From Patescibacteria group bacterium (GTDB taxonomy: Bacteria; Patescibacteriota; Minisyncoccia; Phycocordibacterales; CSBR16-119): a stretch of 64,000 nucleotides of DNA. Shown here piece after piece: positions 57,815 through 63,656 of the stretch. The stretch lies in contig JBPOJJ010000002.1 of assembly GCA_052033715.1 (NCBI GenBank), forward strand, positions 94,408-158,407, in the 5' to 3' direction. Each line of letters opens with the position of its first letter. Position 1 is the stretch's first letter. Under the pieces are notes generated by a model that had not been told where the DNA came from, did no database searches, and saw only the letters and a program-made list of their open reading frames with translations. The translations under genes and the position numbers were made by a program.

Positions 57815-58750
57815 TTATTTTTCTAACGGTTGATGGGCGGAACAGTAGTGTGCCGAACGTCCGCCAACCACACGCCTCATTATAACACCCCTGCAACCCC
57901 TCCGTTCGCACGGAAGCCCTGTTTTTCTGTAGACATGATGTTTATTCTGGAATTTACCAGGTAAGCCATAAATATTGCGATAGTCAGATGTCGAATCTCC
58001 GCCAAAATCTATGCCACGTTTGAGAAGCGGTTTCATGGAGTTGTACATCTTTTTGAACTTTATCTCGGGAATACTTTTGACTCGTTCCTCGGGATGAATG
58101 TCGGATTCCCAGAGCATTTCGTCAGAGTAGATATTTCCAATGCCGGCGATGAGTGTTTGGTCCATGAGAACATTCTTGATCCGGCCACTTCCGCGTTTCA
58201 TGAGTCGTGATTTGAAAGTTGGATAATCCATTTTTGGGTCCAGTGCATCCATACCGACGTCTTTCAAATGTTTCGTATTTGAGGATTCTTTGGTTTCAAA
58301 CATCGTGACTTTGCCAAACTTTCTCGAGTCGCAGAAGGCCAGAGAATATCCGTTATTCAGTTTGAAGAGAACTCGGATGAAACGGTTATACGGATCTTGG
58401 AGAGCCGTGTCGTCGGCCCACCAAGGCCATGCATGACCCGCTAGGCCGTCAGAATCTTTCCCATCCCTGTATTTGCCGTACATCAAATGTCCGGTCATTT
58501 TCATATGAATCAAAATCGTTTTTGATTCAGCCAAATGTATCAAAATATTTTTCCCGCGACGTTCGGCTCGCAAAATTTTTTTGCCAATGATTTCTTTCTT
58601 GAACCTGTTCCAAAACTCTAGGTTTTTGATCTCGTCTTTTCTTGCGTGCGACTTTTTTGGAAGGGAAGACCAAACATCAACAATTTTTAAACCCCGAACA
58701 GTTTCATTGAGGCCTCTTACAGTAGTTTCGACTTCTGGTAATTCGGGCAT
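57815..58750 (-). CDS. mutM: Formamidopyrimidine-DNA glycosylase (Fpg/Nei family) with C-terminal zinc finger
   Basis: MPELPEVETTVRGL N-terminal catalytic Pro-Glu motif, H2TH, C-terminal CxxC...CxxC. Confidence 0.9.
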   Translation of the reverse strand: MPELPEVETTVRGLNETVRGLKIVDVWSSLPKKSHARKDEIKNLEFWNRFKKEIIGKKILRAERRGKNILIHLAESKTILIHMKMTGHLMYGKYRDGKDSDGLAGHAWPWWADDTALQDPYNRFIRVLFKLNNGYSLAFCDSRKFGKVTMFETKESSNTKHLKDVGMDALDPKMDYPTFKSRLMKRGSGRIKNVLMDQTLIAGIGNIYSDEMLWESDIHPEERVKSIPEIKFKKMYNSMKPLLKRGIDFGGDSTSDYRNIYGLPGKFQNKHHVYRKTGLPCERRGCRGVIMRRVVGGRSAHYCSAHQPLEK

Positions 58751-58802
58751 GGGTTGATTATAGTGACACGCGCTCTGAATGTAAAACTGATATATTTATA
58801 TT

Positions 58803-59531
58803 ATGAGTAATGCAAAATGGTTGGAGAAAGTTGTAGATTACCGCACCGTTTACGGACTGGGTGTGGTAAAAGAAATAATCTCGCAGAAGATCAAATACCA
58901 ATTTGATATTATAAAATCTAAAAAATTAGCGAAAGCTTATATTAATAAAATCAAGACAGAAAAAGACTCAAAAACCCTACTTCTTATTGAGGCTAGAGCC
59001 GCTAAACAATTCTGGAAAATATTTGGAGGGCAGATCAACGGAAAGACTTTTTGGTTTTCACGGAACCTTCACCATGACGATGTGGTAAATAAATTACTTG
59101 ATGTCGGGTATCATTTTCTGGTTCAAAAGGTGGCAAAAATTTTTGAAGAGCATGATGTGCCGTATGAAATCGGGTTTTTGCATAAGGCCCAGTCAAAAAA
59201 TGCAAAACCTCTCGTGTACGATTTCATAGAATGGTTGCGGCCCATAATTGTTGACGCGACACTGCTTAAGTTTTTACACAGGAAAAAGAAGTTGTTTGAG
59301 CATTTGGACAAAAAATCAATCCCGCATTTCATATTTGAGATAAAGAAGTCATGTAAAAAATCTTTTTATCACAAACATCTCAAGTATTGCGTCACTTTGG
59401 ATTATTGGATAAGTCTGAATGTTCTGGCGATGAGATCTGCGGTAACTGAAAATAGGAGGCCGAAGTTTTATTTCCCGAGTCTTCGCCATGAAACAAGATG
59501 CAGAAAACCGCCCGAAGGCGGTTCGCAATAG
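58803..59531 (+). CDS. cas1: Cas1-like integrase, N-terminally truncated (C-terminal catalytic alpha-helical domain only)
   Basis: NKLLDVGYHFLVQKV...PYEIGFLHKAQSKNAKPLVYDFIEWLRPIIVD matches Cas1 N.LL.YGY.LL / GFLH / LV.DLME.FRP.VD motifs. N-terminal beta-sandwich domain missing. In-frame TGA at 58761-58763 prevents upstream extension. Low GC (~35%). Confidence 0.65.
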   Translation: MSNAKWLEKVVDYRTVYGLGVVKEIISQKIKYQFDIIKSKKLAKAYINKIKTEKDSKTLLLIEARAAKQFWKIFGGQINGKTFWFSRNLHHDDVVNKLLDVGYHFLVQKVAKIFEEHDVPYEIGFLHKAQSKNAKPLVYDFIEWLRPIIVDATLLKFLHRKKKLFEHLDKKSIPHFIFEIKKSCKKSFYHKHLKYCVTLDYWISLNVLAMRSAVTENRRPKFYFPSLRHETRCRKPPEGGSQ

Positions 59532-59552
59532 TTGGAAGATATACAATAAAGT

Positions 59553-59732
59553 GTCCTCTGTCACCATATTCCTTGGAAGGAGGTCTAGATCGGCTTCGAA
59601 AATAGAAATCAATTCTCCGTCTTGTACCCTACCACCTGGTTCCTTGGAAGGAGGTCTAGATCGGCAGGCAAAGAGTATTATTAGCTAAATGAGGTACCCT
59701 ACCACCTGGTTCCTTGGAAGGAGGTCTAGATC
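59553..59732. CRISPR. Mini CRISPR array: 3 repeats (39 nt; first copy degenerate) / 2 spacers (32 and 31 nt)
   Basis: Repeats at 59553-59591 (31/39 match), 59624-59662 and 59694-59732 (identical: GTACCCTACCACCTGGTTCCTTGGAAGGAGGTCTAGATC). Spacers CGGCTTCGAAAATAGAAATCAATTCTCCGTCTT and GGCAGGCAAAGAGTATTATTAGCTAAATGAG. Immediately downstream of the cas1 fragment. Confidence 0.7.
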
Positions 59733-59996
59733 CAGAGCTTCCTCCAAAAGGGGTGGTTTTCAACGACTAACCCGAAGGTCAATCGGCTTCATCTCACCGC
59801 GTATTTCAGCGTCTATTGCGGCCCGGGTACGGGGCATAGGCTAACTCCCATTGAGCGCCCTGCTTGTATATTTTTTGAGAAAAATACCTTTTTCCGCCAG
59901 AAAAGCGGGGTAGTTTTCTCACCTGTGTCGAGGAACTTAATTACCCATACTATACAGGAATGTAGCTTTTTGTCAATTTGACGGATATAGTATACT

Positions 59997-61750: not shown

Positions 61751-61763
61751 GACGCGGATATCA

Positions 61764-62528
61764 TTAAACAATTTTCCACACGGCTTTGAAAAGTTTGCGT
61801 AAATTGTCGGCCATCGTTCGGTCATGAATCTCGATTAGATAATGCGGGCGCTCTTTGGTCATGATCATCAAAATATAATCTCCAGCAACAACATGAGTGG
61901 CGGTAAAATCTGAACTGTCTTTCCAATATTTTACGTTTCTCTGATATTTATAAGGTTTCTTGGACACAACTTCAGTTTCAATCGGCTTTTCATTGGTGAG
62001 GAGATTCAAAATTATGTCTTTGGAGAAACTATTCCAGAAATGATCCGCCCAATCTTGATAATTTTCTAGTAACGTATGGTCTTGGAAACCCCACCAGGTA
62101 TTGTCAGAGTCCATCACACTTCTTGCCCAAGTCAGAGACTCATTTATCAAAAAATCCTTTAAACCGTCTTCTTCAATGAAACGTATTTTGGGTACAGAAT
62201 ATTTTCCCTTCTTTGGAAGTTTGCTTAGTTCGGAAATAATTTCAGGCACTTCTTGTTTTATCTTCCTAATGTTTAACTCTTTAATATTTACAAAACTCTC
62301 CAAAGATTTGGTGCCCAGCGACACTAAGTATTTTGCTTTACCCGCTCGATCTTCAGCGAGCAGACCTTTTTTCGCGAGCTCCTTGGCTACGCTATACACG
62401 GTAGGACGATTAATACCGGTTAGGGAAGAAACCTTGGCGGGTAGGATTTTCTGGTATTCAAGTACACAAAGATAGACAGAGGCTTCTTTGTCGGTCAGTC
62501 CAATTTGTTTAAGTTTATCTGAAATCAT
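61764..62528 (-). CDS. TrmB-family (sugar-responsive-type) transcriptional regulator
   Basis: N-terminal winged HTH LGLTDKEASVYLCVLEYQKILPAKVSSLTGINRPTVYSVAKELAKKGLL. C-terminal effector-like domain. Confidence 0.7.
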   Translation of the reverse strand: MISDKLKQIGLTDKEASVYLCVLEYQKILPAKVSSLTGINRPTVYSVAKELAKKGLLAEDRAGKAKYLVSLGTKSLESFVNIKELNIRKIKQEVPEIISELSKLPKKGKYSVPKIRFIEEDGLKDFLINESLTWARSVMDSDNTWWGFQDHTLLENYQDWADHFWNSFSKDIILNLLTNEKPIETEVVSKKPYKYQRNVKYWKDSSDFTATHVVAGDYILMIMTKERPHYLIEIHDRTMADNLRKLFKAVWKIV

Positions 62529-62647
62529 ATGGCCAATTTATCAAAACGTTGATCTGTTGTCAAATTTGTTCCAACACTATTTTATCCTTTAAAACAAGAA
62601 TTTTTAGTTAAAATACCGCTCATAGTTCATTTTTATTTTGACAGATA

Positions 62648-63043
62648 TTGAAACTTATTGTAATCTGCTATGCAAAACTTAATCAAATGAAAACCAAAGG
62701 AAGTTCAGTGGAGTCGAGTGTTCGCTCATTTCCTGTACACCTTCTCGTATCTTGTCTGACCGAGAGGTGGTTGGGGTATTACGACTCAACAGGTAGTGAA
62801 TGGCTAGAAATGATAGTTCACGTTATGGGGTGCAAAGAAGACGCCCCGGAGAATATTCGATCATTGAGAGCTATGGTGGGTAATGGGATCTGTGCCCAGA
62901 TTATCAGGGGCATTTACCCTGAATTTGCGAGCGAGGTCTTAGCGTTAAAATATCTACCTACTGACTATCCTAGCTCTAAAAAGCTGGAAGATAAGCTCGC
63001 TAAGAAGTATGGACGGGAATTGAAATTGCCTGGAGGGAAGTAA
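62648..63043 (+). CDS. Hypothetical protein
   Basis: 131 aa ORF followed by terminator AAGACCCCGGATTTACCGGGGTCTT (63053-63077). No family recognised. Confidence 0.4.
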   Translation: MKLIVICYAKLNQMKTKGSSVESSVRSFPVHLLVSCLTERWLGYYDSTGSEWLEMIVHVMGCKEDAPENIRSLRAMVGNGICAQIIRGIYPEFASEVLALKYLPTDYPSSKKLEDKLAKKYGRELKLPGGK

Positions 63044-63080
63044 AGTGCGCGGGAAGACCCCGGATTTACCGGGGTCTTTA

Positions 63081-63656
63081 CTATCTCCCTAAAATTTTCA
63101 GCGCTTCTTTTATTCGCGCATTTGTGCCGACGATTTCGGCGGGGATTTCTTTGGCGGCATTACGCGCGTCGTTGAGTGAGTAGCCGAGAGATTGCAAAGC
63201 TTCGAGGATGTCTGACTCGCCACGCAAACTCCCCGTCTCGTCTTTGTGGCCGAGGGCTGAAAGTTTGTCTCGGAGTTCTACCACTATTTTTTCCGCGGTC
63301 TTTCTGCCGATTCCAGAAACTTTGGTTAGATACGATGTGTCGCCGGAGCCGATGGCCTTCTTGATTGTTTCCATTGGCGCGATTGAAAGTATGGAGAGAG
63401 CGCTTCGTGGGCCAATTCCAGAAACGGATAGTAGTAATTCAAAAAAGTTTTTCTCATCAATCGTTTCAAAGCCAAACAAATCCATGGCATTCTCGCGCAC
63501 GGCGAGATATGTCCATAATTCGATCGATGAACCGACGGCGGGTGACTTGGCCAGAAGATCAGTTGAGACGAATAGTTGGTAGCCAACGCCGCCCGTGTTT
63601 ACCACGAGATATTTGTCAGATTTTTGGGTGATTTGGCCGATTATTTGGGCGATCAT
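63081..63656 (-). CDS. ruvA: Holliday junction DNA helicase RuvA
   Basis: MIAQIIGQI...GVGYQLFVS OB domain, HhH motifs (SGIGPRSA, SGIGRKTAEKI), C-terminal domain III. Confidence 0.9.
   Translation of the reverse strand: MIAQIIGQITQKSDKYLVVNTGGVGYQLFVSTDLLAKSPAVGSSIELWTYLAVRENAMDLFGFETIDEKNFFELLLSVSGIGPRSALSILSIAPMETIKKAIGSGDTSYLTKVSGIGRKTAEKIVVELRDKLSALGHKDETGSLRGESDILEALQSLGYSLNDARNAAKEIPAEIVGTNARIKEALKILGR

Follow-up and report, generated by a model that had tools for sequence, protein, structure and literature searches.

Duplicated ends of ruvA and mutM beside two cargo cassettes in an uncultured Paceibacteria genome

How did a CRISPR-Cas cassette and a regulator cassette come to lie between the core genes ruvA and mutM, and why is each accompanied by a second, incomplete copy of a core-gene end? 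A sequence-only reading had taken this locus for an ancestral ruvA-terminator-mutM junction that received two cargo insertions, each duplicating its target. Here, the locus was compared with itself and with related loci (labelled L) across the window, that is, the whole 64-kb stretch of DNA (64,000 nucleotides) that was analysed. The host is an uncultured member of the Paceibacteria (candidate phyla radiation, CPR), and both core genes are DNA-repair genes.

The ruvA-mutM gap and its duplicated gene ends

Both core genes are intact and lie on the minus strand. The mutM gene (57815-58750) encodes a formamidopyrimidine-DNA glycosylase of 311 aa with Pfam Fapy_DNA_glyco and H2TH domains and has orthologs in 160 loci; a promoter-like TTTACA-17-TATAAT, matching at 11 of 12 positions, is found by its start (58785-58757). 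The ruvA gene (63081-63656) encodes 191 aa with Pfam RuvA_N, HHH_5 and RuvA_C domains. As read from the sequence, a hairpin at 63054-63078, between ruvA and a gene for a 131-aa protein, is a candidate terminator for both; it is kept in L004 and was not listed by the terminator scan.

Synteny of ruvA and mutM is nearly universal among 158-160 related Paceibacteria loci. The junction is tight (gap of at most 12 nt) in 23 of 66 colinear loci, and in 32 of the 66 the gap is at least 194 nt and holds varying genes (Mur ligase, amidase, others) without stubs. A cargo-free junction, which the earlier reading proposed to seek in related genomes, was found in the closest relatives (L003, L005, L006 and L008), where the two genes are 1-3 nt apart. 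The gap is a cargo hotspot between two conserved core genes; its usual form is a tight junction of 1-12 nt without a terminator, and since relatives show such junctions, a tight ruvA-mutM operon is taken as the original state.

Self-BLAST of the whole 64-kb window confirmed that the start of mutM and the end of ruvA are duplicated, at coordinates slightly different from those first proposed. The mutM 5' repeat (58679-58767 versus 61474-61562, both read on the minus strand) is direct, spans 89 nt with 79 identical positions (89%; E = 3e-26), and comprises codons 1-23/24 together with the 17 nt upstream of the ATG, where the -10 box GTCAnTATAATCAACCC lies. Its left copy, with codons 1-24, belongs to the working gene and adjoins cas1; its right copy is a stub whose ATG lies at 61545 and whose frame stops after 26 codons. 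The ruvA 3' repeat (63082-63110 versus 61722-61750) spans 29 nt at 93% identity (E 1.6e-4, same search) and reaches about 36 nt at lower identity. This places the ruvA stub at 61721-61756 (minus strand) and the working copy at 63081-63116; the stub holds the last 11 codons and the stop (RVKEALKILGR*) and begins 7 nt past the stop codon of the regulator gene. Apart from these, the window has no intergenic repeats other than those of CRISPR; the sole further repeat, a 29-mer, lies inside the gene for a giant Fn3 protein.

All eight differences between the mutM copies in their 23 shared codons are synonymous third-position changes, and the stub is free of replacement changes, frameshifts and indels. 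The probability of this pattern is 1.9e-5 under neutral decay of one copy and 7.9e-4 with one copy under selection and the other neutral. Silent-site identity between the copies (15 of 23) is similar to between-species whole-gene values (45-59%), and the stub is 92.8% identical to the mutM 5' end of L003. Thus, the copies diverged while functional, in separate lineages, and not by decay in place, and the repeats are not a target sequence duplicated at insertion, as had been supposed; one mutM copy therefore came from another lineage. A donor lineage was found for neither copy. Apart from one I-to-V replacement, all changes in the ruvA stub relative to the working end are silent, and V is the residue in the ruvA of L004 and L006.

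Between the stubs lies a 159-nt unit (61563-61721, minus strand) with a promoter-like TTGATT-17-TAAAAT, about 110 nt of further sequence, and a 13-pair terminator (61578-61607). The hairpin reported earlier between the duplicates, GAAGATGGACCGGAGTCCATCTTC, is indeed present at 61581-61604, and a minus-strand scan lengthens its stem to 13 pairs, followed by a T run. The unit has no homolog in 167 loci, L004 included, and no Rfam match, and so is a third variable piece of the locus. The center is therefore not "exactly" the ancestral junction, which in this clade is commonly tight and without a terminator. What holds of that reading is a ruvA-mutM junction with separate cargo; its central piece is an orphan.

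Two cassettes of different age

The cassette next to ruvA encodes a TrmB-family helix-turn-helix regulator of 254 aa (61764-62528, minus strand; Pfam TrmB E 1.4e-10) and, as its partner, the hypothetical 131-aa protein (62648-63043, plus strand), for which profile searches returned no family match. Homologs of the regulator occur in L004 (89% identical, same site) and L011 (74%, different site), and the sole homolog of the 131-aa protein is in L004 (86%). Positions 63656-61720 are colinear with L004 at 79.4% nucleotide identity over 1938 nt, including the junction of the regulator gene with the ruvA stub (L004 5453-5480). L004 has this cassette and the ruvA stub, without the cas cassette or the mutM stub, and the four closest relatives are empty, which bears out the idea of separate cargo blocks. 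Since the TrmB junction but not the cas cassette occurs in L004, the TrmB insertion is the older and the cas insertion is lineage-specific; a single age for both was rejected on the same evidence.

The cas cassette lies on the plus strand next to mutM. It begins with a short Cas1 of 242 aa (58803-59531) without the N-terminal domain (Pfam Cas_Cas1 positions 133-263 of 283; TIGR00287 positions 100-316 of 327). Homologs of 240-250 aa form a conserved family in which E63, H127 and D140 are invariant, and with this catalytic triad intact the notion of a truncated relic was dropped. A mini CRISPR array follows (59553-59732), with three 39-nt repeats, the first degenerate, and two spacers without a match in viral contigs or anywhere in the window; arrays of relatives have 3-8 very similar repeats. 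The region after the last repeat (59733-59960) is a conserved, structured, tracrRNA-like non-coding RNA, kept in L001, L002 and L164-L167 with compensatory changes at 4 base pairs. The effector gene (59997-61415; 52% GC versus 43.7% in the window) encodes a Cas12f/TnpB-fold protein of 472 aa from the first ATG, although translation may in fact begin at M17 (60045). It matches Cas12_x1 (CAS-V-F effector) in PADLOC (E 1.2e-31) and AsCas12f 8j12_A (E 5.8e-13) and TnpB 8h1j_A in Foldseek, and has homologs P0001-P0059. Together, the effector, the short Cas1 and the structured non-coding RNA make up a Cas12f-like system that looks functional.

A palindromic terminator, seen as an inverted repeat, follows the nuclease gene (61434-61463), and L164-L167 have a terminator at the same position. 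Tentatively, the right end of the cassette can be placed at 61459-61479 (plus strand), where, by comparison with L164-L167, TTTTTGCTATCTACTAAGAAT is similar to the sequence that usually separates the nuclease gene from cas1, TTTTGCTATACTTAAAAT-ATG. Its last 6 nt overlap the mutM stub and possibly represent a microhomology, AAnAAT, although the motif is short and its surroundings are AT-rich. Compared with relatives, the gene order is circularly permuted, and the point of opening lies in the intergenic sequence between nuclease and cas1.

Origin of the stubs

We consider it likely that the cargo came from relatives through recombination anchored in mutM or ruvA, which left the gene-end stubs behind. 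The donor would be related Paceibacteria with other cargo in the ruvA-mutM slot, and their DNA would probably have been taken up free; a PilB-like ATPase encoded in the window would fit pilus-based uptake. The GC content of the nuclease gene, higher than that of the window, would agree with an outside source. Homologous pairing would have been one-sided, in ruvA for the TrmB cassette with its 131-aa partner and in mutM for the cas cassette, with the opposite side of each fragment joined illegitimately (homology-facilitated illegitimate recombination, HFIR). Alternatively, a fragment carrying a piece of the core gene may have circularized and entered by a single crossover. By either route, cargo and a fresh working gene end would be added from the donor, and the resident end displaced as a stub: 36 nt of ruvA in an old event, since the same junction occurs in L004, and 89 nt of mutM, promoter included, in a recent event specific to this lineage. 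The stubs are taken as the resident copies because they would still be joined to the older context.

One-sided-homology substrates do give HFIR, and single crossovers of re-circularized molecules leave the insert flanked on either side by a duplicated 109-950 bp of the homologous segment (PMC3240628). Because classical HFIR usually yields deletion and not duplication (PMC3240628), the circle variant fits better, although it would need a prior circularization step. No breakpoint was resolved inside mutM or ruvA, sliding-window identities being too noisy at about 75-80% identity. Against the recombination model, the ruvA stub is unexpectedly undecayed relative to that of L004, and the 159-nt unit between the stubs is not accounted for. 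Since L004 alone among 158 related loci has a comparable gene-end stub, such an outcome is rare.

Site-specific integration, with an attachment site overlapping the mutM 5' or ruvA 3' end, a replacement end carried on the element and a tyrosine or serine recombinase encoded elsewhere, would explain why gene-end direct repeats border each cargo while the gene is restored, and why two genomes have an identical TrmB junction; the permuted cas order likewise suggests a circular intermediate. However, neither the two cassettes nor 20 further large ORFs of the window encode an integrase or transposase domain, and the mutM repeats are long, with 10 scattered mismatches in 89 nt and no short identical core. 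Together with the rarity of any stub (1 of 158 related loci) and the placement of related cas cassettes at unrelated sites without host-gene stubs, this makes such integration improbable. That same placement weighs on both sides of a self-mobile cas cassette, circularized and inserted by the short Cas1 as integrase, or homing by a break from the Cas12f-like nuclease and recombination repair. The family occupies many different sites, one of them inside a ribosomal protein operon, modules of array and non-coding RNA border the family's genes in relatives as direct or inverted repeats, and the conserved catalytic triad and the permutation with its intergenic break would both suit mobility. Yet none of these other sites has stubs, and the casposon hallmarks (terminal inverted repeats, a 14-15-bp target duplication, a polymerase gene) are missing. 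Neither the spacers nor the sequence past the last repeat match anything in the window, mutM/ruvA junction included, and ten differences in an 89-nt repeat cannot be staggered-cut fill-in, so we see little chance of it.

Duplication of the genome's own sequence at insertion, by a long target duplication or replication slip with later decay of the unused copy, has the right geometry, with direct repeats bordering cargo, but is highly doubtful given the silent-only divergence (P = 7.9e-4 even with silent-site drift in the working copy), the undamaged mutM stub and the functional-looking reading frame of the ruvA stub. The source is a metagenome-assembled genome, so that a contig chimeric between two strains that differ in cargo, or one wrongly joined at a repeat, must also be weighed, and for the nuclease/mutM-stub junction no independent confirmation was found, exact-protein look-ups for neighboring genes giving nothing. 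The longest stretch of identity between the copies, however, is 26 nt (manual count), the stub is joined to unique sequence and not through a shared repeat, a Logan contig (run SRR34217545) is 100% identical to 58665-59621, across the mutM-5'/cas1 junction, and the TrmB-stub junction recurs in L004, an unrelated metagenome-assembled genome from another sample. Misassembly is thus unlikely, and an artefact of this kind is the explanation to which we give the least weight. Homology-driven acquisition is also a better reading than transposase-mediated insertion, as had been proposed, since the cassettes show neither terminal inverted repeats nor a short target duplication. With recombination in the flanking genes as its probable origin, the locus is a clear but fairly ordinary case of cargo swapping in such genomes.

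Comparison with known systems

The cas module resembles type V-F (Cas12f/Cas14-like) systems in its Cas12f/TnpB-fold effector of 400-470 aa, its array of 39-nt repeats, the adjacent conserved structured RNA and the presence of Cas1. It differs in that Cas1 lacks the N-terminal domain, Cas2 and Cas4 are absent, the effector has no CxxC zinc ribbon, and the RuvC-II glutamate varies within the family; the circularly permuted order also departs from the family's usual one. Some integrative elements target gene ends and carry a replacement end, as at tRNA 3' ends and in dusA 5'-end islands. As with these, the insert lies within the end of a housekeeping gene, cargo sequence restores the gene, and a stub or direct repeat stays behind; here, in contrast, an integrase is lacking, the long repeats carry mismatches and have no identical core, and the cargo is only 1.3-2.7 kb.

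Minimal mobile elements, described for Neisseria (Saunders and Snyder 2002, cited in PMC3787668), offer another comparison: conserved genes flank cassettes that vary and are swapped through homologous recombination (PMC3787668). In both cases, close relatives hold different whole-gene cassettes between the same two conserved genes, the cargo lacks mobility genes, and exchange is ascribed to DNA uptake followed by homologous recombination in the flanking genes, which we infer for the present locus. Unlike those elements, the exchange here appears incomplete, with cargo added and not replaced and duplicated gene-end stubs left; the host belongs to the CPR, and one cargo is a CRISPR-Cas system. 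With the HFIR and circle single-crossover experiments (PMC3240628), the locus shares foreign DNA anchored by one-sided homology and, for the circle variant, partial duplication of the homologous segment. The process, proposed here from sequence, would differ from classical HFIR in that the latter usually deletes recipient DNA, and the repeats of 89 and 36 nt are shorter than the 109-950 bp of the experiments.

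Layout of the ruvA-mutM locus and divergence of its repeats

Two blocks of cargo lie between ruvA and mutM, and each is flanked by direct repeats of gene ends, of 89 nt for mutM and 29-36 nt for ruvA. By increasing coordinate, mutM (57815-58750, minus strand) is followed in plus-strand order by a short cas1 (58803-59531), three 39-nt CRISPR repeats (59553-59732), a non-coding stretch of ~260 nt and a TnpB/Cas12f-like gene of 472 aa (59997-61415) with its palindromic terminator (61434-61463). Next come an 89-nt copy of the mutM start (the mutM stub, 61474-61562), a unit of 159 nt containing a strong hairpin, and a 29- to 36-nt copy of the ruvA end (the ruvA stub, 61721-61756). 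The second block comprises a TrmB-family regulator (61764-62528, minus strand) and a 131-aa ORF (62648-63043), with a hairpin (63054-63078) between this ORF and ruvA itself (63081-63656, minus strand). Elsewhere in the window, dnaA and dnaN (36481-39162), the likely replication origin region, are found ~20 kb from the junction, and ruvB (45074-46036) lies ~17 kb from ruvA; a PilB-like secretion ATPase (46705-48939) and a Pif1-family helicase (20126-21829) are also encoded.

The duplicated mutM start and ruvA end described in the sequence-only reading were confirmed by self-comparison of all 64 kb, in which the mutM repeat is identical at 79/89 positions (E = 3e-26) and the ruvA repeat at 27/29 (E = 1.6e-4). 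No other repeats were detected in this comparison beyond the CRISPR repeats and one intragenic Fn3 29-mer (9818-9846/10409-10437, 97% identical), which is internal to a 2421-aa giant secreted protein with fibronectin-type repeats (4593-11858). The mutM repeat contains a -10 box (GTCAnTATAATCAACCC) and codons 1-23/24, with the ATG of the duplicate at 61545. Where mutM is separated from ruvA, the -10 box ends 6-7 nt before the ATG (TATAATCAACCC-ATG), as seen at 58751-58785 and 61546-61562 in the window and upstream of mutM in four related loci (L083, L007, L011 and L014). This proximity suggests a leaderless or near-leaderless transcript.

A target sequence duplicated at insertion, as had been proposed for these repeats, is contradicted by the way in which the mutM copies differ. 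The 23 codons common to both contain eight differences, every one of them a synonymous change at the third position, and the peptide encoded by each copy is MPELPEVETTVRGLNETVRGLKI; the first base of codon 24, where the repeat is at its margin, holds a ninth coding difference. The probability of such a silent-only pattern is ~2e-5 if the stub decayed neutrally, and ~8e-4 if silent sites of the working copy were drifting as well. The copies agree at 15/23 silent sites, near the 45-59% found for this mutM against sampled species. Compared with the working end, the ruvA stub, RVKEALKILGR*, shows silent changes and one replacement of I by V, and V is the residue at that position in the ruvA genes of two related loci, L004 and L006. 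The simplest reading of these patterns is that each repeat pair represents orthologous gene ends of different lineages, joined by recombination, and the silent-only differences place the source of the incoming DNA in a different lineage of the same clade.

The two ruvA stubs available for comparison are unequally decayed. The window stub (61721-61756) retains a clean frame with, beyond the replacement just described, silent-type differences only, and the stub in L004 (5445-5480) carries about four replacement-type changes. The junction is common to both despite this, and gene conversion or re-acquisition is possible.

The ruvA-mutM gap in related genomes

A MutM scan of one genome per species and of a metagenome collection yielded 160 Paceibacteria/Parcubacteria loci, nearly every one of which has ruvA directly upstream of mutM. 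It is upstream on the same strand in 66/69 first-scan loci with both genes, and the second scan gave a similar result. Among the colinear loci of the first set, gaps span -1 to 2927 nt: 23 of the 66 have gaps of -1 to 12 nt, and another 32 have gaps of 194-2927 nt with assorted genes. The slot is empty in some relatives, and in others holds the TrmB and 131-aa gene pair, a Mur ligase, an amidase or other genes. The closest relatives (L003, L005, L006 and L008; MutM 79-86% identical) supply the intact, cargo-free junction that the sequence-only reading had proposed to look for, with the ruvA end abutting the mutM start directly at gaps of 1-3 nt. Thus, the original state of the clade is a tight ruvA-mutM operon, and the gap is a cargo hotspot.

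The relative ages of the two insertions are revealed by L004 (MutM 82%, RuvA 92%), which is colinear with window positions 63656-61720 at 79.4% identity over 1938 nt. Its order is ruvA, hairpin, 131-aa gene and TrmB, with a ruvA stub directly past the TrmB stop; neither cas genes nor a mutM stub were found at this locus. Because L004 has the TrmB junction and lacks the cas genes, the TrmB insertion is the older of the two and common to both loci, and the cas insertion is restricted to the window's lineage. The earlier proposal is upheld in part, with two cargo insertions, gene-end stubs and an origin driven by homology; the insertions are of unequal age. Stubs are not a general feature of such loci, since L004 is the only other case among 158 ruvA-mutM loci and host-gene stubs are missing from the sites that this cas family occupies elsewhere. 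A TrmB homolog (74% identical) is also present in L011 (4894-5658) between spoU and a thioredoxin-like gene, a place occupied by tRNA-Lys in the window; it has neither a 131-aa partner nor stubs, and its different site indicates that the regulator is an accessory gene moving within the clade.

Homology between L004 and the window ends where the ruvA stub ends; past that point, L004 has 528 nt with a 90-aa ORF and the window has the 159-nt unit. This orphan unit (61563-61721, minus strand) has a promoter-like TTGATT-17-TAAAAT, ~110 nt and a 13-pair terminator, with a fold z-score of -3.8, and could be a small RNA gene or a leftover terminator. No homologs were found in 167 related loci or in Rfam; a resemblance in pairwise alignment, which had suggested a small RNA common to L004, was unsupported by BLAST, nhmmer and Rfam and was withdrawn. 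Since the unit has no homolog and L004 differs at this position, the segment between the stubs is a third variable piece, and not the spacer of a preserved ancestral ruvA-terminator-mutM junction as first envisaged.

An assembly artefact is unlikely here. The longest identical run between the 89-nt copies is 26 nt by our own count, a contig of the Logan assembly collection (run SRR34217545) exactly matches 58665-59621, and the TrmB/ruvA-stub junction is found again in L004, which belongs to an unrelated metagenome-assembled genome. For the nuclease/mutM-stub junction no second source was found: when same-species strains were sought by exact-protein look-ups, MutM, TrmB and the nuclease in two versions gave no match, and no relative in the metagenome scan exceeds 82% MutM identity.

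Composition and order of the cas cassette

The cas module is not debris. Its Cas1 (242 aa) belongs to a family of 240- to 250-aa proteins (P0061-P0094) that lack the N-terminal domain and retain invariant E63/H127/D140 with Cas1-like spacing. The cas1 gene directly follows the nuclease gene in four sequenced relatives (L164-L167), and several further nuclease and Cas1 homologs come from contigs of equal size; Cas2 and Cas4 are absent from the module. The effector matches the PADLOC Cas12_x1 profile for CAS-V-F effectors (E 1.2e-31), and its structural model (mean pLDDT 73.9) has AsCas12f and TnpB as top Foldseek matches, with E down to 5.8e-13. The model includes a low-confidence insertion of ~45 aa at residues 95-139. 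In the effector-family alignment, A6, D276 is invariant and the third aspartate mostly conserved, and CxxC motifs of a zinc ribbon are missing from the effector. The IGE-motif (RuvC-II) glutamate is present in the window effector and confined to its own subclade, and many members of this Cas12f/TnpB-fold family may thus not cleave DNA. With its Cas12f/TnpB RuvC fold, CRISPR array (three repeats here, up to eight in relatives) and adaptation gene, the module resembles type V-F systems in these respects.

A non-coding region of ~170 nt (within 59733-59960) lies right after the last CRISPR repeat and is conserved in six loci. It is a structured RNA in which four base pairs show compensatory changes and short segments (GGTGG, GGGTAC) are complementary to the repeat, which makes it a candidate tracrRNA. 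Occurrences elsewhere are L001 38-270, L002 8646-8870 and 10349-10571, L165 6387-6620 and ~9263-9450, L167 2514-2745, and one in L164. The nuclease gene, measured over 60045-61415, has 52% GC (GC3 55%) in a window of 43.7%, and cas1 (37.7%) and TrmB (38.8%) fall under that value, so the cassette is compositionally mixed.

Relatives have the arrangement [array-RNA]-nuclease-terminator/promoter-cas1-[array-RNA], in which the cas genes lie between [array-RNA] modules that are repeated directly in L165 and L002 and in inverted form in L164. The window order, cas1-[array-RNA]-nuclease-terminator (58768-61473), is a circular permutation relative to that of the closest relative, L166 (nuclease 68%, Cas1 65% identical). 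The break falls in the nuclease-cas1 intergenic sequence, and the right end of the cassette (TTTTTGCTATCTACTAAGAAT) resembles the usual form of that sequence, stopping where the cas1 ATG would follow. This permutation, the main unexplained feature of the locus, may reflect an intermediate that was circular or in tandem. We do not claim a 14-nt duplication of the cas1 promoter region at the two cassette ends, because the resemblance there is weak and AT-rich.

Other loci of this cas family occupy unrelated sites, beside L25, beside L21 or inside a ribosomal protein operon before S14; in the last case (metagenome contig L167, 212-2770) the cassette is directly upstream of S14, S8, L6, L18 and S5. 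One can envisage the Cas12f-like cassette as a circularising mobile unit that entered the mutM 5' end by means of its own short Cas1 or of a captured core-gene segment serving as a portable homology arm, and CRISPR-Cas systems would then hop between CPR genomes with no dedicated recombinase. The permuted order would fit such a unit, but the family's other loci have no host-gene stubs, and we regard this scenario as highly improbable. RNA-guided homing was also considered and rejected: neither the two spacers nor the sequence beyond the final repeat matches anywhere else in the window, and exact matches to the first 23-24 nt of each spacer were not found among viral contigs.

Probable recombination history and comparison with known systems

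The most likely history has three steps, namely promoter gain, the TrmB event and a later cas event, for which we infer the DNA uptake itself, the donors and the crossover points; indirect pointers to uptake with recombination in the flanks are the silent-only divergence of the repeat copies and a PilB-like ATPase encoded in the window. The ruvA-mutM gap would first have gained sequence with a separate mutM promoter, and the motif TATAATCAA(A/C)CC-ATG is found upstream of mutM in L083 as well, with similar forms in L007, L011 and L014. DNA of a relative carrying TrmB and the 131-aa gene after ruvA would then have recombined through ruvA homology only, displacing the resident last 36 nt of ruvA. 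Later, DNA of another relative with the cas cassette before mutM would have recombined through mutM homology only, displacing the resident mutM promoter and first 23-24 codons. On the non-homologous side, the join could be illegitimate (homology-facilitated illegitimate recombination, HFIR) or could have been made when the fragment circularised before a single crossover. Substrates with one-sided homology yield both outcomes in experiments, and single crossovers left 109-950 bp of the homologous segment in duplicate (PMC3240628). An illegitimate joint is expected to show 3-10 bp of microhomology, and a candidate for it is a possible AAnAAT overlap of mutM codons 23-24 with the end of the cassette. 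Sliding-window identity along mutM and ruvA showed no clear switch and was too noisy for breakpoints, and L003 is the best match for both mutM 5' copies (86% and 93%), so that no donor is identified.

The locus adds a further case to a kind of genome change already known, here in an under-studied phylum and with a miniature CRISPR-Cas system as one cargo. It is a clean and datable case of accessory genes entering very small CPR genomes without transposases or integrases, through recombination of related lineages' DNA into a slot between core genes, and the order of events can be read from the gene-end stubs left behind. The compact type V system, with its short Cas1, structured RNA, no zinc ribbon and an architecture that is direct, inverted or permuted depending on the genome, may interest those seeking miniature genome editors, although current views are not overturned.

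Several classes of mobile element differ from this locus. A site-specific integrative element has an integrase or recombinase gene in or beside it and a short identical core; here, neither cassette nor any of 20 other large ORFs in the window has an integrase or transposase domain, and the repeats carry 10 mismatches over 89 nt and 2 over 29 nt. Insertion sequences and transposons bring a transposase and terminal inverted repeats and leave a target duplication of 2-15 bp, and no inverted repeats or short target duplication were found at either cassette; the TnpB-fold protein of the cas cassette is a CRISPR effector with no TnpA partner. Casposons encode a family B polymerase besides a full-length Cas1 and are bounded by terminal inverted repeats and a target duplication of 14-15 bp, whereas the cas cassette has the short form of Cas1, no polymerase and no inverted repeats. 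The homologous segment duplicated on both sides of the insert is that expected of single-crossover integration. The overall pattern agrees with the minimal mobile elements of Neisseria (PMC3787668), as the same conserved flanks, ruvA and mutM, bound the site in relatives, the content varies among close relatives and includes empty sites, and the cargo is free of mobility genes and element ends.
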